Below, piece after piece: positions 11,230-61,572 of a stretch of 64,000 bases of DNA; the stretch's first letter is position 1, and the number at the start of each line of letters is the position of its first letter. A program made the translations under genes and the position numbers. The notes under the pieces were generated by a model. That model did no database searches, had not been told where the DNA came from, and was given only the letters and a program-made list of their open reading frames with translations. This DNA comes from Escherichia phage C6. The stretch is taken from sequence record MW679410.1, one strand, 5' to 3'.

Positions 11230-11844
11230 TCAGTAAGAAAGAACGGAAAGATTCCAAATGGTGTAATTATTCCATTTAGGATTTCTCTCAATAGAGTCTA
11301 CGCGCAGCGTAGTTCCCGCAGGGAACATCATCTCATCTTCATCATTGATTAATTGTAAGTTTGCTATACGGGTAGATTCAGGAAATGCGCCTGGGAACTC
11401 TTCAGGGGGAGCAGCACATAACATTTTAAAGATTTCTTCCTGATAATTGTACACAAATGGCGCATCATTAATACAAAAGATATTAAATGTTCCATAGAAG
11501 TTATAAGATGCGAAATTCCTTGCCACGTTGAAGTCTTTAGAGAAGCTCATCACACGGTCGAATTCAATTACCGCACCTACACACATTGTGGACTCTAGAT
11601 ACTTCATAGTCTTTTTAGATATGCCGCGATAGAGCTTATCAGGCACTACAGAAGTCAGGTTCTTACGGATGATTTTGTTCAGAGTTTCCTGGATACAATC
11701 TGGTTTATTTTCCATGCACTGCCAGAGGGTACTCTGTTCTAAATCAGAATACACCTCATCAATTTCTATCTGAGTATTCTCACGGAAATCATCGCATTTG
11801 ACATTGTTGATAAATTCTGCTAATTTATGGCTCGGATATAACAT
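11230..11844 (-). CDS. modB: ADP-ribosyltransferase ModB-like
   Basis: 204 aa; R-S-E ART signature: LYRG, SFS, and EDEMMF glutamate motif. Confidence 0.7.
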   Translation of the reverse strand: MLYPSHKLAEFINNVKCDDFRENTQIEIDEVYSDLEQSTLWQCMENKPDCIQETLNKIIRKNLTSVVPDKLYRGISKKTMKYLESTMCVGAVIEFDRVMSFSKDFNVARNFASYNFYGTFNIFCINDAPFVYNYQEEIFKMLCAAPPEEFPGAFPESTRIANLQLINDEDEMMFPAGTTLRVDSIERNPKWNNYTIWNLSVLSY

Positions 11845-11898
11845 ATTATTCTCCTCAGTTGGTAGAAAGATAGTACCACAAGCTTCCTTGCCTGTAAA

Positions 11899-21898: not shown

Positions 21899-22792
21899 TT
21901 AAAGGACCACGTCCTCATAACTTGGCATTTCGTGCTCAGAATGGATATGGGCACCGAAATAAATGAATTCAGCTAGACCAGGATGGAATACTAAATCAGG
22001 ATTCTCATGATAAATGATATGGGGTCTTGATTTCAGAATCTGATAATATTCAACCTTACTCGGTTTGAATTTAATAATCTCTACATCAGGGCGATAGTCT
22101 TCACGCTTAAATGAATCATTCGGATCGGTGATGTAAAGACGAGCACCTTCAGCCGCGGCTTGGTCTACAACTCTTTCGAATTGATAACATTTATCTGAGA
22201 TACGGAATGGATGGAAAATACCATCAATTTTAATAGGCGCTAGACCTTCAGAGTAACGCTCAATTACTGCCGGATTAATTACCTTTTGGTCTACAAAAAT
22301 CTTATCAGAGGATGCACCTCGTGACACCAGGACGTCTTTCTGGCATTGATTCAGGACTGTAGTATAAATCGAACGTTCAACTGAAGACACGTCGATATCA
22401 ATGAACTCATCAATATAATAACGAGGAACTTCAGGGTCCATTGTAATGTTAAAGTTGAATTGTACAGTCTGAGCACCATCATAACCTGTGATATCGGTTA
22501 CCAATCCTGAGCAGTCATAGTATTCGATTAACGAATCAACAACGAACTCATTTTCAGACCAAAAATGTTTACGAGTTTCATAAGCATTTTCTTTATACCA
22601 GAGTGGTACAAAATTCAGTTCAGGAAATAATTCAATGCATTCTTTGATATCGCTCGAATTTCTAGGATAAGCCAGATAATCACCTGGGCAAGCACGGTTT
22701 AAATGGAGTTGAAAATTGCCGTCCTTAAGGACGGCATATTCACCTGTTTCGTAACTACGCATACTGAAAATAGGAACGATAAACAAACTCAT
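21899..22792 (-). CDS. hypothetical protein (297 aa) occupying the T4 beta-glucosyltransferase locus; candidate DNA-modifying transferase
   Basis: ORF between uvsX and gene 42, where T4 has beta-gt; no similarity by eye to T4 beta-gt; function inferred from position only. Confidence 0.65.
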   Translation of the reverse strand: MSLFIVPIFSMRSYETGEYAVLKDGNFQLHLNRACPGDYLAYPRNSSDIKECIELFPELNFVPLWYKENAYETRKHFWSENEFVVDSLIEYYDCSGLVTDITGYDGAQTVQFNFNITMDPEVPRYYIDEFIDIDVSSVERSIYTTVLNQCQKDVLVSRGASSDKIFVDQKVINPAVIERYSEGLAPIKIDGIFHPFRISDKCYQFERVVDQAAAEGARLYITDPNDSFKREDYRPDVEIIKFKPSKVEYYQILKSRPHIIYHENPDLVFHPGLAEFIYFGAHIHSEHEMPSYEDVVL

Positions 22793-23487
22793 TTCAGGAA
22801 TCCTCGAACGTAGTCAAAATCACGTTCAAATACGTGTGCACTAACCATAGTATGGGAATACGTGCCCAGACCAACACCACACTGTTCAGCAATAAAGGCC
22901 ATCAGTTTACCCTGCAGATAGAAATCCAGCTGCATAACGATAGCACAGTTCTGTGAACGCATATGAGTGTGTGCATACAGACGTCCATCACGAATATAAT
23001 ATGTTACCGAATCGGTACATGGATATTCTAGGGATTCGTCAGAATCAAGGAGGGCTTGGTCTTGTTCTTGGAGAATTTGGAACACAACTCTTCGCGAGTT
23101 AGGCTTTTCTTTAAGCTCTTTAAGTAAGGCTGGGAGTTGGGCCACAATTCGAGGTCCATAGAAAGTGTTGAAGTTTGCAGGCAATACGTCACTTTTCGGC
23201 TTATCAATGAACTTAGCAACATTAGGATATTCCTTAAATGCTTCGGCGGCATCAGTACCACCAGAAATCATAAATTTCCAGAAAGATTCGGCATAATCAT
23301 AGTTGATACGATTAATGCGGGGATCGGTGAATTTGTAAGTGCTTGCATCCAGAACTTCAACTGAAGCCGAACCAATTTCATAACAACGACCGATACGAGA
23401 ATCAACTGCAAACTGTGGAGCTTCCAGGATTTCTTCGTTCATTTGCTTAAACGCGTTTTCAAAACTAACAGCGGTAATGTGTTTCAT
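22789..23487 (-). CDS. 42: dCMP hydroxymethylase-like enzyme (thymidylate synthase fold)
   Basis: 232 aa; TS-family motifs NSRRVVFQ, catalytic-Cys context YPCTDSV, MRSQN...QLD with Asp at the cytosine-specifying position; diverged from T4 gp42. Confidence 0.75.
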   Translation of the reverse strand: MKHITAVSFENAFKQMNEEILEAPQFAVDSRIGRCYEIGSASVEVLDASTYKFTDPRINRINYDYAESFWKFMISGGTDAAEAFKEYPNVAKFIDKPKSDVLPANFNTFYGPRIVAQLPALLKELKEKPNSRRVVFQILQEQDQALLDSDESLEYPCTDSVTYYIRDGRLYAHTHMRSQNCAIVMQLDFYLQGKLMAFIAEQCGVGLGTYSHTMVSAHVFERDFDYVRGFLK

Positions 23488-24020
23488 TTATTCACCTTAT
23501 TTTCAATATATTCATTCAGACGTTTTAATTCTACCATATCGACGTTAAGCAAGTTATTATGACCGTCATGGTTTAAAACTTTAAAAACATTTTTAAAACA
23601 GTCTTCATATTTCTGGATAGTTAGGTTGAACTCATCTTTGGTCAATTTAATAAGGTCATCTTCGAAGTCTTCATCCAATGGATTACGGGTTAAAATAACC
23701 TCAATAATATTGAATTCAGATTTAAACCCTTTCCAATCTTCCAATTCTACATAAGGGTCCATTTCACCGCGAAGGAATCCAGAGTAAACAATATTACTAG
23801 GATATCCACGGTCTAAGATGTAGACAAAATTAGGGTCTAAAAACTTATATAAGGTTTCGACTAAAGCCTTATCATTATCAGTCCCTATTGAAATGCACTT
23901 ACCATTAATCTTTTTAGGAAAATCAATAAGACGATATTTCTTATCAGACAAAAGTGATTCAATTAAAGTAGACTTCCCGGAATTATCCGGGCCGTCGATA
24001 ACAATGATTTTTGGTTTCAC
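23484..24020 (-). CDS. thymidylate-kinase-like dNMP kinase (P-loop)
   Basis: 178 aa; Walker A GPDNSGKST and DRGY motif resembling the TMK DRY motif. Confidence 0.65.
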   Translation of the reverse strand: MKPKIIVIDGPDNSGKSTLIESLLSDKKYRLIDFPKKINGKCISIGTDNDKALVETLYKFLDPNFVYILDRGYPSNIVYSGFLRGEMDPYVELEDWKGFKSEFNIIEVILTRNPLDEDFEDDLIKLTKDEFNLTIQKYEDCFKNVFKVLNHDGHNNLLNVDMVELKRLNEYIENKVNK

Positions 24021-24415
24021 GGATGATATGCCTTATAGGTTTCAAGAGTTCCTTCACGAACCATTTCTTTAAAGTGGTCAGGACGGATTGCTCGGTCATC
24101 GATGATAAAAGTATAACTCGGCTTATGTGTAAGCAGATTATGATATTTCAATCCAATCTTTTCAAGGTTCTTAACCAATGCAGGAACTACTTCAACCAAG
24201 ATTCGACCAGGTCCACATGAAGTCATGCCACGAGCAGTGAACAGCGTAATCTCATAACCTTCGTCATAAAGCTTATTAATCATGGACACCATTTCGGTGT
24301 CCGGTTTAAAGTTTTCGTAATCACGGTCATGGTTCCAAACCGTGATTGTATTATCGATGTCAAAACATAAATGGGGCTTATTTTCTACTCGATGCGACAT
24401 TAAATTTTCTTCCAT
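24017..24415 (-). CDS. small HAD-superfamily phosphatase
   Basis: 132 aa; motif I DIDNTIT (DxDxT). Confidence 0.65.
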   Translation of the reverse strand: MEENLMSHRVENKPHLCFDIDNTITVWNHDRDYENFKPDTEMVSMINKLYDEGYEITLFTARGMTSCGPGRILVEVVPALVKNLEKIGLKYHNLLTHKPSYTFIIDDRAIRPDHFKEMVREGTLETYKAYHP

Positions 24416-26073
24416 TGTTTGTGGAGTTCAGTAGAACCTGTAGGTTTATATTTTACACCAGTTTCTTGGTCAAGCAAAACCCACTTATCAGGACAACGAG
24501 TGATAATTTGGGCCGTGATAGGGTCACGAACTTCATCGACGAATTCACCTGTAATAAGCTTACGCTTGCGAGGATGCCGCTTCAGCAGCACACTCAGTTG
24601 ATATAAACCATTGTAATAAGCACCCAGAGCTTTCAGAGGGTTATTTTTAAAGTAACCTGCCAATGCCATCCAGATAACAGCAATCCAGAGCTTGTGCTTA
24701 AATGTACACATTGGAATATCATCTAAAGGCATAACCTTTTCAATATCAACGAATACACGAGTTCCGTTACGAGTTAAGCCACCCCATAGAGGGTCAGAGT
24801 TAAATTTGTCATACCCATCGATAGAATAAAGCACCTTAGCTTCATCATAAATCGCAGGGCCTTTAGAACTATTACCAAAATAACCACGTGGGTCGATGAT
24901 TTTAATATCACCTTCGTCCGACAACATAATATTACTGTAGTGCGGGTCACCGTGAATAAGTTGGTACGGTTCTTTATGTTCAGACAGAATTTCTAAGGCG
25001 TGGCGAAGAAGTTTTTCAGGGTCGCCTACCTTAAAGTCATTGACATGGGTAATACCCTGTGGAGCAAAGCCTTCAATCAATCCAGCAATAGAAGCATTAC
25101 GAATAAGGACCTTGTCCAATACTTCTTTCTTAACATCGGAATACCATTGCTCATCGGATGGATTATCGATAGTCCCACCGAATGAACGTAATGCACTAAT
25201 AACCTTATAAACCATGAGGACTTTAGTTTCTTTAGACATGAACCGATAGGCATCTGCCATAGTACGACCAAAGATACGTTCCATTTTAATGAATTCACCT
25301 GGAGCAAAGTCTACAATGCTCGGAACGAATTCAGAATCAATAGAATTATACCAATTGATTTCTTTAGATTGGATTTCTTTACCTAATTCGTTGGTAGGTA
25401 CTTTAATAGCCAGATTCTCAGTGAACTCTAATTTATTAAATTCACGGTTAATTTCGGATTCTTCATGGGCCTTAGCCAGTTTCAGTTTGTCACCGACATC
25501 AACTACAAAGTCTAGCTTACGTTCGGTCAAATGGACCATTGAATCCAGGTTGTCGGCAAGGTCTTCACCATAATTAGAGCGGTTGAAACCTGTCCAATTA
25601 GCCACCTGATACAAACCAACCACACCGCCACCGGTACCAATTTCACGCAGGTACGGTTCTTCAAATGTAAAACGACAGTCAGTCCCGTAGGTATAACAGT
25701 AGTCGTTATCCCACTCAACTTTATGACCCTCAGGAATGATGTCACACCAGTTAAACAGGACATTGTGCCCGATAATATCTTCAGCAATGCAATCAATAGC
25801 ATGAGCTGAACCATTGGCGACATCTACGTTACGAATAGTGAATTTAGGCTTATCACTATTAATCATGTTAATGGATTTAATGTAACCCTTAACGAGGTCA
25901 TTAAATTTGCTGTGAATAACCAGAATAATTTCATCTGATTGATTACTATACAAATCATACAAATGTTTTAATACAGTATGTTGTTTGTAGTTAACCAGTA
26001 CCTTCGGGATTTCGTTAGTAATTGGATACAACCGTGAGCCAAGACCCGCGCCTAAAATAACAACCTTTTTCAT
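24400..26073 (-). CDS. bifunctional sugar-1-phosphate nucleotidyltransferase (N-terminal) and APH/choline-kinase-like sugar kinase (C-terminal)
   Basis: Start moved to MKKVVILGAGLGSRLYPIT (GxGxR NTP-transferase motif; GAGGA SD); C-terminal HGDPHYSNIML...DIKIIDPRG is the catalytic loop of the APH/ChoK/MtnK kinase family. Confidence 0.8.
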   Translation of the reverse strand: MKKVVILGAGLGSRLYPITNEIPKVLVNYKQHTVLKHLYDLYSNQSDEIILVIHSKFNDLVKGYIKSINMINSDKPKFTIRNVDVANGSAHAIDCIAEDIIGHNVLFNWCDIIPEGHKVEWDNDYCYTYGTDCRFTFEEPYLREIGTGGGVVGLYQVANWTGFNRSNYGEDLADNLDSMVHLTERKLDFVVDVGDKLKLAKAHEESEINREFNKLEFTENLAIKVPTNELGKEIQSKEINWYNSIDSEFVPSIVDFAPGEFIKMERIFGRTMADAYRFMSKETKVLMVYKVISALRSFGGTIDNPSDEQWYSDVKKEVLDKVLIRNASIAGLIEGFAPQGITHVNDFKVGDPEKLLRHALEILSEHKEPYQLIHGDPHYSNIMLSDEGDIKIIDPRGYFGNSSKGPAIYDEAKVLYSIDGYDKFNSDPLWGGLTRNGTRVFVDIEKVMPLDDIPMCTFKHKLWIAVIWMALAGYFKNNPLKALGAYYNGLYQLSVLLKRHPRKRKLITGEFVDEVRDPITAQIITRCPDKWVLLDQETGVKYKPTGSTELHKQWKKI

Positions 26074-26133
26074 TATCTGTTCCTCAAGTGAATGTAGGTA
26101 CATTATACACTATTTTTAATAAATTGGTATTGC

Positions 26134-26634
26134 TTAAATCTTATCTTTACCGATTTCAATACACTGTTCTATTGCCGCCGGTACTTTGGTCTTGAGCTTA
26201 TTGATTTGTTTCTTATAATCACGGGCCTTATCAAAGCTTTCGGTTTCGAGCATTTCGTAATAACGAGCCTCATGGATGGAAATCTGTAGATTGATATGAT
26301 TTACGCACATCGCATACAGTTTCTGTTTTTTGTACAAATCGTCTTGACGCTTCATTTCTGCCTGGTGTTTGGCTAGTACCGCTTCACGCTTGGACTCTTG
26401 TTCACGTTGGAATTCAATTTCCCTTTGAGCATATTTTGCACAGTTATTACCGCATTGATTATTAGCTCGGGTATACACAAGTCCAGAACCTGCACGGAAT
26501 TTCATTTCGCCATCGAATTGTTTCTGTTCAGCTGCGATACGAGCTTTACCAACTTCATCAGCCGAAACTGCATCACCATATTGGACCGCGCAACCTGATA
26601 GGAGCATACTCATTGCGATAATTAACTTTTTCAT
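26134..26634 (-). CDS. putative lipoprotein (166 aa)
   Basis: Signal peptide with lipobox LLSGCA; coiled-coil-like remainder. Confidence 0.65.
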   Translation of the reverse strand: MKKLIIAMSMLLSGCAVQYGDAVSADEVGKARIAAEQKQFDGEMKFRAGSGLVYTRANNQCGNNCAKYAQREIEFQREQESKREAVLAKHQAEMKRQDDLYKKQKLYAMCVNHINLQISIHEARYYEMLETESFDKARDYKKQINKLKTKVPAAIEQCIEIGKDKI

Positions 26635-57845: not shown

Positions 57846-58182
57846 ATTTCTTCCAGTCAGAAATCATATGAATCTCTTGGTCATAAGTTAAGAGACTGCG
57901 AGTAATAATACCCTTACAAGGCCCTGAGATGAACTCGAGAGTGAAGTAAGGAACCTGTTTCATTAATCGGATACTTGGGGCATGACATCTAAAACGAGAG
58001 CCCTTAAAGGGCCCTGTCATGAACACGTATTCTAGTGGGTAAAAATAAGCATATTCAAAATTCGCGGTAAGGTCCTCTCTTCGAACCTTACGTGAGAAAT
58101 AACAGAACTCAAAAAGTTCTTCATCAGTCATCATTGCATTCCTATCACAAAGAACAGAGGCAAAGGTTTGTCGCCTTGGCAC
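57838..58182 (-). CDS. hypothetical protein (start ambiguous, about 98-114 aa)
   Basis: ORF. Confidence 0.5.
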   Translation of the reverse strand: MPRRQTFASVLCDRNAMMTDEELFEFCYFSRKVRREDLTANFEYAYFYPLEYVFMTGPFKGSRFRCHAPSIRLMKQVPYFTLEFISGPCKGIITRSLLTYDQEIHMISDWKKYV

Positions 58183-58658
58183 ATAAATTTATTAATCATT
58201 ACCTGATAAGCTTCATAGAACTTATCCATTGCCGGAAGGCGCATCGGCTCTTCGATAATAATCAATAATCGAGTAACAGATAGTCCACGATACTTATGGA
58301 AATGGTCTTCATCAAGGAAACTGCGCACAGTATCATAGACAATAAAACCAGGACCTTCGACTTGGAGATGTGGTTGTGCCTTAGAAACCTGTTTTATTAC
58401 ATTACAAATTTCCCGCGAGCGATGCGAAGAACTTGACATAACAATCACATCATTACCTTTGGAAACCCAATCAGCTGCGAACTGAGCAAGGGCACTTGTT
58501 TTACCTGTTTGGCGTCCGCCATCAAGTCGAAGAGTACCAAACTCTTGCATTCTTGAAGCAGGTTCGTACCAGGTATATTGGTCTGAGTCTAAACGTTCAA
58601 TGGCGCGTTCAGCGAAGGCGTGCATTAAGGTTAGATAAATGGGAGTTAAAAATTTCAT
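58131..58658 (-). CDS. small P-loop NTPase (175 aa)
   Basis: Walker A GGRQTGKTSA; Walker B-like IIIEEP. Confidence 0.6.
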   Translation of the reverse strand: MKFLTPIYLTLMHAFAERAIERLDSDQYTWYEPASRMQEFGTLRLDGGRQTGKTSALAQFAADWVSKGNDVIVMSSSSHRSREICNVIKQVSKAQPHLQVEGPGFIVYDTVRSFLDEDHFHKYRGLSVTRLLIIIEEPMRLPAMDKFYEAYQVMINKFMCQGDKPLPLFFVIGMQ

Positions 58659-58819
58659 AGTAGTCTCTTAGTGGTGGGGCCATTCCTTGGCACATTAAGT
58701 CATCCATGTATCCGTATGTAAACCCTTTACCGCACTTGGGCTCGACCTTATTACAGGTAGGGAAAGGCCCATCACTCAGAGGACACGACGTTCATGAGGA
58801 GAGGGTCGGCTTGCCTTTA

Positions 58820-59119
58820 TTAGAAAGAACCAGAACCTTTAATTGTGTTCTGACGACCTTTATTTTCTAATTCAGAGTGGTCGATTTCATATGCTTGTGC
58901 TACGCCAAAGGCCTTTTTAACTTTAGCTAAAGAACCTTTAGATGTAACAATATTAAAAGTATTACCTTTGGTAAAATCAACCAAATCCACTTGTACACCC
59001 TGTTTACCGAGGCTTGCTACAATAGCATCAACATATTCTTGGTCTAAATTGCCTTGAACTCCAATTTGAAATGCTTTAGGAGCTTTGGCTTCTGTAATAA
59101 ATTCTTGATAAGTTTTCAT
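58820..59119 (-). CDS. internal protein (IPII-like) with capsid-targeting sequence
   Basis: 99 aa; N-terminus MKTYQEFITEA is the T4 internal-protein CTS. Confidence 0.7.
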   Translation of the reverse strand: MKTYQEFITEAKAPKAFQIGVQGNLDQEYVDAIVASLGKQGVQVDLVDFTKGNTFNIVTSKGSLAKVKKAFGVAQAYEIDHSELENKGRQNTIKGSGSF

Positions 59120-59162
59120 TGTTATTCCTTAAGTTGATAGAAGTATTCTATCACGGATTTAA

Positions 59163-59579
59163 TTAAGCGTAAATAGCCTTGCCATAATGTTTGTACCAGG
59201 TAGGACGCTGTGCAATTTTTTCGTCCAAACGGGCCTGAGATATAGCAATAGAAGCTTCGTGTGGAGTATAGTCACCACGGAATTCCTGAGGAATATCACT
59301 AATGTCCTGGACCGTAGTATCCTTGATATTAAAACCACGTTTTAAACATTCCGCTATAAGCTCGATTTGACGTTTACGTAAAAATTCAAGCTTATCATAA
59401 AAGAAAGTAACATGGCCGGTACCAAGGATAAAAGTAGAGCTAATTTTAAAATCACGAACACGTTTACCATTAGCAACATGCTTACGAACTGCACCGAAAA
59501 CACGTGGTAATTCGCGATATTCAGCCATTAAGTGTTGGTCGGCCAATTCAGATACTAAGGTAAGGTTAATACGAGTCAT
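59163..59579 (-). CDS. denV: endonuclease V (pyrimidine-dimer DNA glycosylase)
   Basis: Start set at [34 protein letters not shown], which matches T4 DenV. Confidence 0.85.
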
Positions 59580-59639
59580 TTTAGTGTTCTCCATGTTTGT
59601 GTGAGAACACTATATCACAGCTATTGTAAAAGTAAACTG

Positions 59640-59942
59640 TTATTTACCTTTAATTGCTTTAGCTGCTTCGGTAGCCGCTTGCTGAAGGTCATCCATAGAC
59701 ATACCAAACTTAGAAGCAAAGTTATCAATTTTCTTTTCGACAGAATTCAAAGGCTTGGCCTGTTTACCTTCATTAGCGCCCGGGAGAGCGAGAATACGCT
59801 CTTTCTCAATATAAAGGCTTACAAGTTTCTTACGGTCTTTATCTGGCAAATCATGAAATGAATGGGCCTTTTTATTTACGGCGGCTTCTAATTTACCTGC
59901 AGTTACGCGGGCTTCAGTGATAAATTCTTGATAGGTTTTCAT
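59640..59942 (-). CDS. internal protein with capsid-targeting sequence
   Basis: 100 aa; N-terminus MKTYQEFITEA. Confidence 0.7.
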   Translation of the reverse strand: MKTYQEFITEARVTAGKLEAAVNKKAHSFHDLPDKDRKKLVSLYIEKERILALPGANEGKQAKPLNSVEKKIDNFASKFGMSMDDLQQAATEAAKAIKGK

Positions 59943-59983
59943 ATGTTTCCTTTAAAGGTAAATAGGTCTAAGTATTCGCTTTA

Positions 59984-60580
59984 TTAATTACCACGGGCCG
60001 CATTAGCAACGGCGTAAGCGTACTGGATATTAGCGTCTTTAAACGTACCTTTAGAGGTATCTAGTTCTGCCTTAAAGCCAGCTTTAGTCATAACATCAGC
60101 GAATTCTTTACGGAAAGCCATTGTATCAAGACCTTTCCATGTTGATTTGTGCTTGGCAAATTCAAGACCAGCGAAGTTGACAGCCTTAGCCAATTTATTA
60201 TCAATAGCCCATTTACCTGCTTTAGGTACAAATACCGGGCCTTTCTGTTTAGAGAACAGTTTTAAATTCCAGCGACGAAGGTCACCGTCGGCTTTAATAA
60301 AAGCTGCGTCCAAGTTACTAGCAACAACATCTTGGATATGGCCAAATTTAAGTCCATCAGCTTCAATATTTAGGTCGTTACGCCAGCGAAGTCCTTCCCA
60401 GGCGAAAGCTTTAAAGTCGGAAGCCTTTGTAGCTAAATACCGTTCAATAGGAGCTGTTTTAGCGTCAAAACCGTTTCCTGGGTTGTCAACGCCGTTTCCT
60501 CGGTAAGTCCACTCATCTTTATTAATGCCTTGGACCTTTCCTACAGAAGCTTCGGCGATAAATTCTTTATACGTTTTCAT
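59984..60580 (-). CDS. internal protein (IPIII-like) with capsid-targeting sequence
   Basis: 198 aa; N-terminus MKTYKEFIAEA; close to T4 IPIII length. Confidence 0.7.
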   Translation of the reverse strand: MKTYKEFIAEASVGKVQGINKDEWTYRGNGVDNPGNGFDAKTAPIERYLATKASDFKAFAWEGLRWRNDLNIEADGLKFGHIQDVVASNLDAAFIKADGDLRRWNLKLFSKQKGPVFVPKAGKWAIDNKLAKAVNFAGLEFAKHKSTWKGLDTMAFRKEFADVMTKAGFKAELDTSKGTFKDANIQYAYAVANAARGN

Positions 60581-60633
60581 ACGGGTTCCTTAAAGGTAAA
60601 TATTTTAATTGGTATGTTCAAGTAACTGTAGAT

Positions 60634-60662
60634 ATACTATCACAATTCTAGGAGATGTAAAC
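60634..60662 (-). promoter_or_regulatory. T4-type early promoter
   Basis: Minus strand GTTTAC-N17-TAGTAT upstream of an internal-protein gene. Confidence 0.5.
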
Positions 60663-61061
60663 TTATTTGTAGGTTTTCATCCAATTCTTGAACAAAGCCG
60701 CGACGTCTTTCTCTTTAACGTTCAGTTTAACGTCCAACATTTTACCACCCGCTGCTCTCGTTTGGCGAATCTTAGCAGTACCGGTTTCACCATTCCACTC
60801 AACATAATACTGTCCAGTGTTCATTGCAATACCGTCACCGTAGTCTTCATTTTTAGAAGTGGTGAAGGCCAGCTTCATAGTCTTAGAGACGCGAGCCTGC
60901 ATGCCTGTCTGCAGAGCGTTACGAACTCGAATAACCTGAGGAGTGGCCTGGGTCAGGTTCTCATTCAGTTCTTCAGTGAACTCTTCAGATTCAAACATAT
61001 CCAAAAGTTCTTTAGATGCAGGAATTACATTCTCTGCGATAAATTCATTATAAGTTTTCAT
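60663..61061 (-). CDS. internal protein with capsid-targeting sequence
   Basis: 132 aa; N-terminus [11 protein letters not shown]. Confidence 0.7.
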
Positions 61062-61542
61062 ATGCTTTCCAAGTACCTGTTTTAAATGTAGAAATCACGC
61101 GCTTAGCACGATTAGGAGTTTGTCTATACCAACGAGATTGGGCCAGGTTAACTGCCGCATCGTCCCAACGTTTCTGTTGGAGCATACGTAAAGAGTTAGT
61201 GAACCCGGCTACACCTGCTTCACCCATCTGGAAGACCATGTTAATTAAAGCACAACGACGAACTTCGTCCAGCACATCATAAACAGGTTTCAATTTAGGA
61301 TTACGCAGAATAGCTCTACGAGCATTTTCAACCGATCGGTTAAAGAGTTGCTCAGCTTCAGCCATAGTAATACGGCCATTACAAACCCGGCCCATAAGCT
61401 TATCAAGTTCAGCGCGAGCAACATCTTTAGATGGGTTCTTGGTAACCAACTGACCAATCCCAATAGTCCAATAACCTTCGGTGTCTTTATAAAGATTTAA
61501 ATCAAGACCTTCGTCTTGACGTAACATATCAAAAATATCCAT
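61048..61542 (-). CDS. e: lysozyme (endolysin, T4 e family)
   Basis: 164 aa; [32 protein letters not shown]... matches T4 lysozyme. Confidence 0.9.
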
Positions 61543-61572
61543 AATACCTCCTGAGTATAGGAGGTATTTATA

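Follow-up and report, generated by a model that had tools for sequence, protein, structure and literature searches.

Organization of the e-denV locus

Escherichia phage C6 (sequence record MW679410.1) was analysed over a window of 64,000 nucleotides, in which four open reading frames of 99, 100, 198 and 132 aa lie on the minus strand at the coordinates given in the initial annotation. With their neighbours they form the order e, 132-aa internal-protein (IP) gene, ipIII, ipII, denV, Ip7-type IP gene, vs.8. The upstream boundary of the array is e (61048..61542, minus strand), which encodes a T4-type lysozyme of 164 aa (Pfam Phage_lysozyme, E 2.2e-12) and is 75% identical to T4 e. It is followed by the gene for a 132-aa leader-bearing protein, a candidate new internal protein (60663..61061, minus strand; phrog_15461, 'unknown function'), by the orthologues of ipIII (59984..60580, minus strand; 198 aa; leader MKTYKEFIAE; phrog_5341, E 7e-115) and ipII (59640..59942, minus strand; 100 aa; leader MKTYQEFITE; phrog_7857, E 6.3e-54), and, beyond denV, by the gene for an Ip7-family internal protein of 99 aa (58820..59119, minus strand; leader MKTYQEFITE; phrog_2667 'internal head protein', E 2.7e-43).

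The denV gene (59163..59579, minus strand) encodes endonuclease V, a pyrimidine-dimer glycosylase of 138 aa (Pfam Pyr_excise, E 1.1e-14; phrog_1183, E 4.8e-63) with 97% amino acid identity to T4 DenV; it lies inside the array, between the 100-aa and 99-aa genes, and is not an internal protein. Its start is likely at 59579 (MTRINL, as in T4) rather than at the first ATG of the reading frame at 59594, which is unused in the annotations of relatives, where denV is 417 nt long. In T4 the corresponding order is e, ipIII, ipII, denV, vs.8 with no other leader-bearing gene, and the array thus has one extra IP gene on each side, as initially proposed.

The top DNA matches to the locus are Dhakaviruses (96-97%), and JS98, the type Dhakavirus, is 92% identical at the e-denV locus. 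These matches, the clear orthology to T4 IPII, IPIII, DenV and e, and the agreeing PHROG assignments identify the locus. Our reading, to which we assign a probability of about 0.8, is that the e-denV IP locus of a Dhakavirus (a T4-type phage of the JS98 kind) is seen here with four cassettes, each cassette joining a common leader to an unrelated cargo with a putative anti-defence role, and the locus evolves by cassettes.

The T4-late-promoter motif TATAAATA has a single exact match between 58500 and 61700, which precedes e at 61565..61572 on the minus strand and is the probable source of late transcripts that run into the array. At the e-denV locus of T4 the exact TATAAATA is likewise found only upstream of e, and a late promoter before each IP gene was rejected on account of this sole occurrence. 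Sigma-70 / T4-early-like promoter matches, each with TG and on the minus strand, are present upstream of ipIII (60634..60661; TTTACA-16-TAGTAT), upstream of denV (59609..59636; TTTACT-16-TATAGT) and upstream of the 99-aa gene, where the match overlaps the 3' end of denV (59145..59173; TTTACG-17-TAGAAT). The e-ipIII spacer of T4 has an equal GTTTAC...TGTGATAGTAT element; the number of promoter-like sites, eight found against 7.2 expected, is not above chance. The GC-rich spacer of 161 nt that lies 3' of the 99-aa gene was searched for RNA elements, with no Rfam match and a fold z-score of -1.1.

A common leader on four unrelated proteins

All four reading frames open with MKTY[QKN]EFI[TA]E, and in each at least eight of the ten residues match MKTYQEFIAE. 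The first ~30 nt of the genes, which the initial annotation had described as nearly identical, agree at 24-27 of 30 positions in every pairwise comparison, falling to 6-12 of 30 at nt 31-60 and again at nt 61-90, which is chance level. The coding repeat lies on the minus strand at 59090..59119 (99-aa gene), 59913..59942 (ipII), 60551..60580 (ipIII) and 61032..61061 (132-aa gene), as found by pattern, repeat and identity analyses, and the repeat search returned a 54-nt, four-copy family made up of the leader plus the ribosome-binding region. Beyond the leader the proteins have nothing in common: full-length pairwise BLASTP alignments end at residues 10-24, and the mature bodies, which had been called unrelated, show no significant match (none at all in four of the six pairs, and E = 0.91 and 4.8 in the remaining two). 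The identification of the leader with the capsid-targeting sequence of T4 is borne out in that all four proteins match it and two of its carriers are orthologues of IPII and IPIII.

The alternative that the four starts resemble one another by chance, or that the extra reading frames are decaying pseudogenes, draws on the shortness of the motif and on nothing else, and is effectively refuted. Searched with up to two mismatches, the pattern ATGAAAACNTAYNNNGARTTYAT matches exactly the four gene starts in the 64-kb window against an expectation of 0.01, and none of 100 shuffled controls reached four matches; a six-frame search of the window for MKT[YF].[ED]F returned no further reading frame. Moreover, the frames are intact, occur in several phage genera and are under purifying selection (dN/dS 0.03 for the 132-aa gene vs JS98, and 0.08 for the 99-aa gene vs VR5), as is expected of real, constrained genes. 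Gene conversion was considered as the cause of the DNA identity and set aside as unneeded, since conservation of the residues together with AT-rich codon choice presumably suffices: the invariant leader codons AAA, TAT, GAA and TTT are AT-rich synonymous choices, and the codon for Thr3 varies freely (ACT, ACC, ACG).

The T4 gp21 protease site is defined as (L/I)-x-E with cutting after the Glu, and a predicted site of this kind ends the leader in all four proteins, residues 8-10 of which are I-T-E, I-T-E, I-A-E and I-A-E. By analogy with T4, the leader would direct the protein to the scaffolding core of the prohead; gp21, the prohead protease, would then cut after Glu10 of I-[TA]-E, and the basic mature protein, present in many copies, would stay with the packaged DNA and be injected along with it. 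JS98 encodes gp67, gp68, the protease gp21 and gp22; genes 21, 22, 67 and 68 lie outside the 64-kb window. Our literature search found no virion proteomics of Dhakavirus internal proteins; packaging and cleavage are thus predictions from the leader, most markedly so for the 132-aa protein.

The four cargos and their putative targets

The 100-aa protein is 94% identical to T4 IPII over residues 1-86 and the 198-aa protein is 86% identical to T4 IPIII; together with the synteny between e and denV, this makes their genes the orthologues of ipII and ipIII in T4. The predicted mature forms are of 90 aa (pI 9.7) and 188 aa (pI 9.6) respectively, and ipIII contains a 21-nt internal duplication (60464-60504) that accounts for seven residues of IPIII. 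PDB sequence searches with IPII and IPIII found nothing. IPI had been put forward as the one characterised internal protein; its role stands, but it is not the only example. T4 Ip2 and Ip3 are also specific inhibitors, Ip2 of GmrSD of ECOR21, alias BrxU (PMC12373910), and Ip3 of the two-gene GmrS1/GmrSD2 system of ECOR17 (PMC12373910, PMC9391042), the strain on which IPIII is required (PMC9391042), and the leader-bearing Bas37_0260 confers McrBC resistance on its phage (bioRxiv 10.1101/2025.11.20.689424). Because Ip2 and Ip3 of T4 each block one GmrSD type IV subtype, the ipII and ipIII products of this phage most probably have the same role, by analogy with their T4 orthologues.

The 99-aa protein is, by sequence, a member of the named Ip7 family. 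With tblastn it matches features named Ip7 in VR7, VR25, CC31 and RB32, its identity being 95-97% to the VR7 and VR25 proteins so named and 48-51% to RB32 Ip7, and its relatives are found in 283 phage records, several of them named Ip7. The predicted mature form is of 89 aa with a pI of 9.0. An AF2 model (pLDDT 74.8) has a beta-alpha-beta-beta-alpha-beta fold, for which the sole Foldseek match in BFVD is another Ip7 ('Ip7 protein, phage MX01', E 2e-10). When ip4-10, ip7 included, were assayed against 15 GmrSD groups, no reproducible inhibition was seen (Silas et al., PMC12373910, Supplementary Fig. 9), which leaves an anti-GmrSD role of Ip7 unproven.

This last result would also fit a mainly structural role, in which the Ip7-type and 132-aa proteins would fill the scaffolding core as basic material that neutralises DNA charge or helps packaging and ejection, with no specific host target, and in which their diversity reflects weak constraint rather than an arms race. 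The mature forms are indeed basic (pI 8.1-9.7, 10-17% lysine), in T4 internal proteins lysine residues make contacts with the phosphates of DNA (PMC3012670), and the structures in the PDB that match the Ip7 model share with it only a ferredoxin/ACT-like fold of a generic kind, which singles out no relative (best E 7.5e-3, TM 0.4-0.5). We nonetheless consider this explanation unlikely, since dN/dS values of 0.03-0.08 point to a sequence-specific constraint that simple filler would not need, all three T4 internal proteins and Bas37_0260 have specific anti-restriction roles (PMC12373910; bioRxiv 10.1101/2025.11.20.689424), and patchy presence and absence in close relatives fits host-specific accessory functions.

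The 132-aa protein belongs to a small, conserved and strongly constrained leader-bearing family that the resources checked do not label as an internal protein. Relatives occur in 49 phage records, and all 40 of those listed are annotated 'hypothetical protein'; there is no Pfam or NCBIfam match, phrog_15461 carries no internal-protein label, and an exhaustive profile search of the family recovered only seven representatives and no annotated relative. All eleven aligned members keep M1 K2 T3 Y4 E6 F7 I8 E10, and a leader-like N-terminus is present in every full-length member examined, across several genera and with or without overlap with e, including the remote members of Cronus (MKTYKEFLAE), Serratia 4S (MKSYNQFLDE) and P0040 (MKSFDQYIME). 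The AF2 model (pLDDT 53) is too poor for use or for a structure search. At the other end of the gene, 60663-60680 (...NWMKTYK*, ATGAAAACCTACAAATAA) is scored by the repeat search as a fifth leader copy at 81%, and a recombination scar was considered there but found no support: the remote homologues end in GWMKTHAK, GWLKK, SWLK and AFMKGK, which marks the W-[ML]-K core as an ancestral part of the protein and leaves at most the TYK tail ambiguous.

The first 14 nt of this gene lie within the 3' end of e, with the ATG inside the stretch TAT GAA AAC TTA TAA that closes e (...KAYENL*); the first slot of the array is in this way joined to the lysozyme gene, whose final codons hold the start of the first IP gene. 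An arrangement of this kind could mean that the 132-aa protein is not packaged at all and that its leader-like start is a by-product of translational coupling to e, the protein having a late intracellular role, for example in lysis control. Besides the overlap, the position of the only exact late promoter nearby, upstream of e, would agree with such a role, as would the predicted disorder of the N-terminal 36 residues and the fact that no database checked calls the protein internal. However, the JS98 copy sits in another slot, between ipIII and denV and away from e, and its leader is intact; the Cronus copy has its leader without any e overlap; in a relative of 194 aa the domain follows another leader-bearing cargo; and IME08 uses the e-overlapping start for ipII, a member of a proven internal-protein family. 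An unpackaged product is accordingly very improbable, and we regard the 132-aa protein as a candidate internal protein.

The four proteins probably serve to disarm defences acting on incoming DNA, the Ip7-type and 132-aa proteins being putative further subtype-specific inhibitors. That these diverse cargos are candidate anti-defence effectors holds, and it is the view already published (PMC3012670, PMC12373910). Pfam, NCBIfam and PADLOC searches for a function of the array proteins returned nothing significant. The phage has an RB69-type cytosine-modification cluster and not T4-type glucosylation (cf. PMC13326640), so the targets of the T4 internal proteins may not carry over, and by sequence its DNA probably carries arabinosylated cytosine. 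We tentatively raise the possibility that members of the 132-aa family, and perhaps also Ip7 in its Dhakavirus allele, are injected to inhibit defences not so far matched to any inhibitor encoded by a phage. Such defences could be type IV nucleases or DNA glycosylases that recognise DNA with arabinosylated 5-hydroxycytosine, the modification inferred for Dhakaviruses and Marfaviruses; the GmrSD variants that T4 Ip1-3 counter are instead specific for glucosyl-hmC. In that case the 132-aa and Ip7 cargos could be used as baits, in wild E. coli and Klebsiella, for modification-dependent defences that are new.

Cassette turnover and relation to known systems

The locus varies strongly among relatives, as had been anticipated, with nine architectures in eleven annotated phages. 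Among 32 T4-like loci the surroundings of denV hold 17 unrelated cargo families, and one family may occur before denV in some loci and after it in others; the nearest relative has another two IP genes ~11 kb beyond e. Recent movement is suggested for ipII and ipIII, whose dS vs T4 and Marfa is 0.18-0.30, low beside the values for e (1.45) and denV (0.62) vs T4, which points to a recent spread of these cassettes between Escherichia and Klebsiella phage genera.

The initial annotation proposed that the shared 5' segment would allow cassette exchange, and some rearrangement breakpoints do fall inside the leader. IME08 has a chimeric leader in which ATGAAAACTTATAATGAATTTATC of the 132-aa gene is joined to ACTGAAGCC... 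of ipII, its homology breaking at 59950 and 61038 by deletion or crossover, with ends at the ipII leader and the 132-aa leader. In WG01 a cargo has been swapped at 59090, nt 30 of the 99-aa gene and the exact end of that copy of the leader repeat. The breakpoints of an ipII deletion in QL01 lie outside the leader, which is therefore not the sole recombination substrate. On the reading preferred here the array changes by gain, loss and reshuffling of cassettes, at least some of these events occurring by recombination within the 24-30-nt leader repeat.

Variable anti-restriction IP arrays are a well-known kind of locus, and of the four proteins only that of 132 aa is still unnamed in databases. 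The T-even internal-protein family (the Ip4-Ip13 series) is reportedly traced to Repoila 1994; IP genes are not a topic of the Petrov 2010 review. With the general principle established and the targets of Ip1-3 known, this locus adds little, but what it adds is usable: a constrained leader-bearing 132-aa family with no internal-protein label in the resources checked, sequence-level evidence of the leader as a recombination site, including a chimeric leader, and a first slot whose start is merged with the stop codon of the lysozyme gene. Internal proteins act at DNA entry and help to decide which wild strains a T4-like phage infects, and hence bear on the choice of therapeutic phages; since their phage has a non-T4 cytosine modification, Ip7 and the 132-aa protein are reasonable probes for defences against that modification.

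The closest known counterpart is the ipII-ipIII locus of T4, which agrees in position, strand, neighbours and the 10-residue leader ending I-[TA]-E, and has an early-type promoter element before both ipIII and denV, while e alone is preceded by a late promoter. It differs in that ipII here has no promoter of its own and follows a 41-nt spacer (115 nt in T4), that IPIII here has the 7-residue internal duplication, and that the RB69-type cytosine-modification cluster replaces T4's glucosyltransferase gene. The Ip7 proteins of RB32, RB15, K3, VR7 and CC31, part of the Ip4-Ip13 series of T-even phages, share PHROG family 2667 and the leader with the 99-aa protein. In RB32, however, Ip7 is at the other IP locus (tRNA.4 to 57B), adjoining Ip9 and Ip5, and in VR5 its gene is upstream of denV, whereas here it is downstream.

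T4 IPI*, an inhibitor of GmrSD (CT596), resembles the array proteins as a small basic protein with leader, protease processing and co-injection with DNA, but has no sequence similarity to them beyond the leader, and the ipI locus lies outside the window. Bas37_0260, an uncharacterised leader-bearing cargo that proved to act against type IV restriction, offers a model for what the 132-aa and Ip7-type proteins may be, although it is at a different locus, that of ipI. More broadly, unrelated small inhibitor genes swapped at a fixed position between conserved anchor genes are also the mark of anti-CRISPR/anti-defence hotspots, a comparison that Silas et al. themselves draw for IP loci (PMC12373910). 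Unlike in those hotspots, each cassette here has a common coding leader that would serve as packaging signal and, in some events, as recombination site.

Four leader-bearing genes flanking denV

Four open reading frames of 99, 100, 198 and 132 aa that share a leader, the N-terminal capsid-targeting sequence of the T4 internal proteins (IPs), are present exactly where the initial annotation placed them, all on the minus strand. The 99-aa gene (58820-59119) and the 100-aa gene (59640-59942) both begin MKTYQEFITE, the 198-aa gene (59984-60580) begins MKTYKEFIAE, and the 132-aa gene (60663-61061) has a leader-type start and overlaps the lysozyme gene e (61048-61542, minus strand) by 14 nt. Gene denV has the 100-aa gene on one side and the 99-aa gene on the other, and its true start is probably 59579, as in T4 and as annotated in the relatives. 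A degenerate leader DNA pattern, allowing up to two mismatches, matches the 64-kb window only at the four gene starts (0.01 matches expected), and a six-frame protein-motif scan of the window found no fifth leader. The near-identity reported for the first ~30 nt holds, with 24-27 of nucleotides 1-30 identical between the four genes and 6-12 of the 30 directly after, and a repeat search recovers a 54-nt family of four copies that takes in the leader and the ribosome-binding region. The mature bodies, or cargos, are unrelated, as had been claimed: no BLASTP match is significant in any of the six pairs, four giving no hit and two giving E = 0.91 and 4.8. Because the T4 order at this locus is e, ipIII, ipII, denV, vs.8, the window is also correctly described as having an extra IP gene on each side of denV.

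At the DNA level the locus shares 96-97% identity with the Dhakavirus genomes UGJNEcP3, AnYang and MX01 and 92% with JS98, the type phage. Compared with T4, protein identity is 94% between the 100-aa protein and IPII (residues 1-86), 86% between the 198-aa protein and IPIII, 97% for DenV and 75% for the e product. IPIII has 198 residues versus 193 in T4 and 189 in VR5, the extra length being accounted for by a 21-nt tandem duplication at 60464-60504 (plus strand GTCAAAACCGTTTCCTGGGT / GTCAACGCCGTTTCCTCGGT) encoding GNGVDNP-GNGFDAK. The 99-aa protein is assigned to phrog_2667, 'internal head protein' (E 2.7e-43), and relatives of it carry the name Ip7 in RB32, VR7, VR25 and CC31; the assignment for the 132-aa protein is phrog_15461, 'unknown function'. 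UGJNEcP3, the nearest relative, has two further annotated IP genes (its coordinates 11362-11857) ~11 kb past e and outside the window, an ipI-equivalent locus adjoining 57B/rnlA-side genes, and MX01 encodes a second Ip7 paralogue, 102 aa long and sharing 50% identity with the 99-aa protein; a total of six or more internal proteins is therefore probable for the Dhakavirus lineage of the window.

The 132-aa family as putative internal proteins

Relatives of the 132-aa protein occur in 49 phage records and are called 'hypothetical protein' in 40 of 40 among the matches listed. The family is small (17 clusters in a word-indexed search, seven representatives in an exhaustive profile search), and the leader is present in each full-length member examined, with M1, K2, T3, Y4, E6, F7, I8 and E10 retained in all eleven aligned sequences. 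Remote members begin MKTYKEFLAE (Erwinia phage Cronus), MKSYNQFLDE (Serratia phage 4S) and MKSFDQYIME (P0040, a metagenomic protein of 194 aa). P0040 looks like a natural two-cargo fusion of adjacent cassettes in which the second leader has been lost: behind its leader comes a segment that opens with residues resembling those of family 7, another leader-bearing cargo family of our locus survey, and behind that segment the C-terminal domain conserved in the 132-aa family. In JS98 the gene lies between ipIII and denV, away from e, and keeps its leader. The dN/dS value against JS98 is 0.03, and in the comparison with Klebsiella phage Marfa the synonymous sites have reached saturation and the proteins are 90% identical. 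The 132-aa gene is thus a conserved coding gene with the leader as its sole constant partner, the signature expected of an internal protein, and we regard its product as putatively packaged.

The protein ends NWMKTYK*, encoded by ATGAAAACCTACAAATAA at 60663-60680, an 81% match that would make a fifth copy of the leader repeat. We considered this as a recombination scar at the 3' end of the gene; however, remote homologues retain W-[ML]-K, and the end is mostly ancestral protein sequence, the TYK tail aside.

Cassette variability and exchange

The IP repertoire varies among relatives, with nine architectures at the locus among eleven annotated phages. Writing 132 for the 132-aa-family gene and II and III for ipII and ipIII, the order is e, 132, III, II, denV, Ip7 in the window and UGJNEcP3; e, III, 132, denV, Ip7 in JS98; e, II, denV, Ip7 in IME08; e, III, Ip7, denV in VR5; e, 132, III, denV, Ip7 in QL01; e, 132, III, denV, then IPs of 119 and 85 aa in WG01; e, 132, II, denV, III, Ip7-like in Marfa; e, a short 132-type gene, denV in Cronus and Serratia phage 4S; and e, III, II, denV in T4. 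A survey of DenV-anchored loci, 31 T4-like ones from IMG/VR and the window itself, making 32, yielded 71 leader-bearing reading frames in 17 unrelated cargo families, one to four per locus, so that four is the maximum seen. All share the strand of denV, and one and the same cargo family may lie on either side of that gene.

Beyond the array, vs.8 (58131-58658) is mosaic among Dhakaviruses: the window allele aligns with those of QL01, WG01 and VR5, is not alignable with those of JS98 and IME08, whose DNA homology to the window begins only at 58612, and has an N-terminus resembling that of the Cronus homologue. The relatively GC-rich 161-nt spacer between vs.8 and the 99-aa gene (58659-58819) corresponds by homology to what is annotated in T4 as the N-terminal coding part of vs.8. 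PVIRSSPSAV can be read in frame within it, but stop codons interrupt the spacer in the window, which reflects either an over-extended T4 vs.8 start or a decayed vs.8 extension. The spacer has no Rfam match, and its fold z-score of -1.1 gives no sign of an RNA element.

Wherever an IP gene abuts e (the window, UGJNEcP3, IME08, QL01, WG01 and Marfa), e ends KAYENL*, coded TAT GAA AAC (T/C)TA TAA, and this 3' end contains the IP gene's ATGAAAAC(T/C)TATAA. At 61048-61061 of the window the YENL* codons (TAT GAA AAC TTA TAA) take in the ATG of the 132-aa gene and its opening codons. The overlap forces leader codon 5 to be AAN, limiting the residue to Asn or Lys, and first-slot genes therefore begin MKTYN or MKTYK whatever their cargo. 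In T4 and VR5, where a promoter-bearing spacer follows e, the gene ends DAYKNL* (TAT AAA AAT CTA TAA), which matches the overlapping 3' end at 12 of 15 nt; the natural e terminus could thus supply the microhomology to the leader for an e/IP fusion.

The proposal that the shared 5' segment permits cassette exchange is supported by breakpoints in two phages. The first gene of IME08 joins ATGAAAACTTATAATGAATTTATC, the 132-aa gene version, to ACTGAAGCCCGC, the ipII version, and homology to the window stops at 59950 and picks up again at 61038; in WG01 the Ip7 cargo is swapped, with the 5' breakpoint at 59090, exactly nucleotide 30 of the gene. The loss of ipII in QL01, however, has both breakpoints in spacers, and these junctions point to the leader in some rearrangements rather than in every event. 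The GenBank record of RB32 describes Ip9 and Ip7 as 'flanked by 43 bp direct repeat'. For ipII and ipIII, dS is 0.18-0.30 against both T4 and Marfa, far below the T4 values for e (1.45) and denV (0.62), which suggests recent spread of these cassettes between genera.

Expression and probable anti-defence function

Between 58500 and 61700 an exact late-promoter motif, TATAAATA, is found only upstream of e (61565-61572), as at this locus in T4. Matches to T4-early-like sigma-70 promoters with an extended -10 lie ahead of ipIII, denV and the 99-aa gene, and T4 spacers carry the same element; ipII has lost its own, its spacer being 41 nt long as compared with 115 nt in T4. Between the genes of the array no convincing terminator was found, the two terminator-like matches both being within e, and late read-through from the e promoter would be the likely source of protein for packaging.

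T4 infection of ECOR17 requires IPIII, which is active without its leader from inside the cell (Srikant et al. 2022, PMC9391042). Ip1, Ip2 and Ip3 inhibit, respectively, GmrSD of CT596, GmrSD of ECOR21 (BrxU) and the two-gene GmrS1/GmrSD2 system of ECOR17, with no cross-protection among the three pairings; the same study described the two Ip loci as a hotspot and saw no reproducible activity of ip4-10, including ip7, against 15 GmrSD groups (Silas et al. 2025, PMC12373910). Deletion of the leader-bearing Bas37_0260 renders its phage sensitive to McrBC (2025 preprint, bioRxiv 10.1101/2025.11.20.689424). Because of these results, the earlier suggestion that IPs are anti-defence effectors is now the textbook account, and ipII and ipIII of the window are orthologous to characterised inhibitors. 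That interpretation is supported, but IPI is not the sole characterised example, given Ip2, Ip3 and Bas37_0260.

No specific function for the 132-aa and Ip7-type cargos could be derived from structure or sequence searches: Pfam, NCBIfam, PADLOC and PDB gave nothing significant, the predicted structure of the 132-aa protein is not reliable (pLDDT 53), and the Ip7 model (pLDDT 74.8) has a beta-alpha-beta-beta-alpha-beta fold with generic matches only. The observation of the array is confirmed along with this support for its interpretation, and both concern a well-known system; what is new is a single leader-bearing family, unnamed and under strong constraint, and a sequence-level record of array reshuffling.

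The window phage differs from T4 in its DNA-modification genes. At 21899-26634 (minus strand) an RB69-type cluster encodes a thymidylate-synthase homologue (22789-23487, minus), a 567-aa nucleotidyltransferase/kinase fusion (24400-26103, minus), an AAA-like kinase-sized reading frame and a small one that RefSeq names phosphoheptose isomerase in JS98. This cluster has been assigned to the synthesis of arabinosylated 5-hydroxycytosine and is reported to be conserved in Dhakaviruses and Marfaviruses (2026 NAR paper, PMC13326640). The IPs of this phage may therefore face other defences than those studied with T4, which has the beta-glucosyltransferase (beta-gt) and gene 42 region where the window phage has the RB69-type cluster instead.
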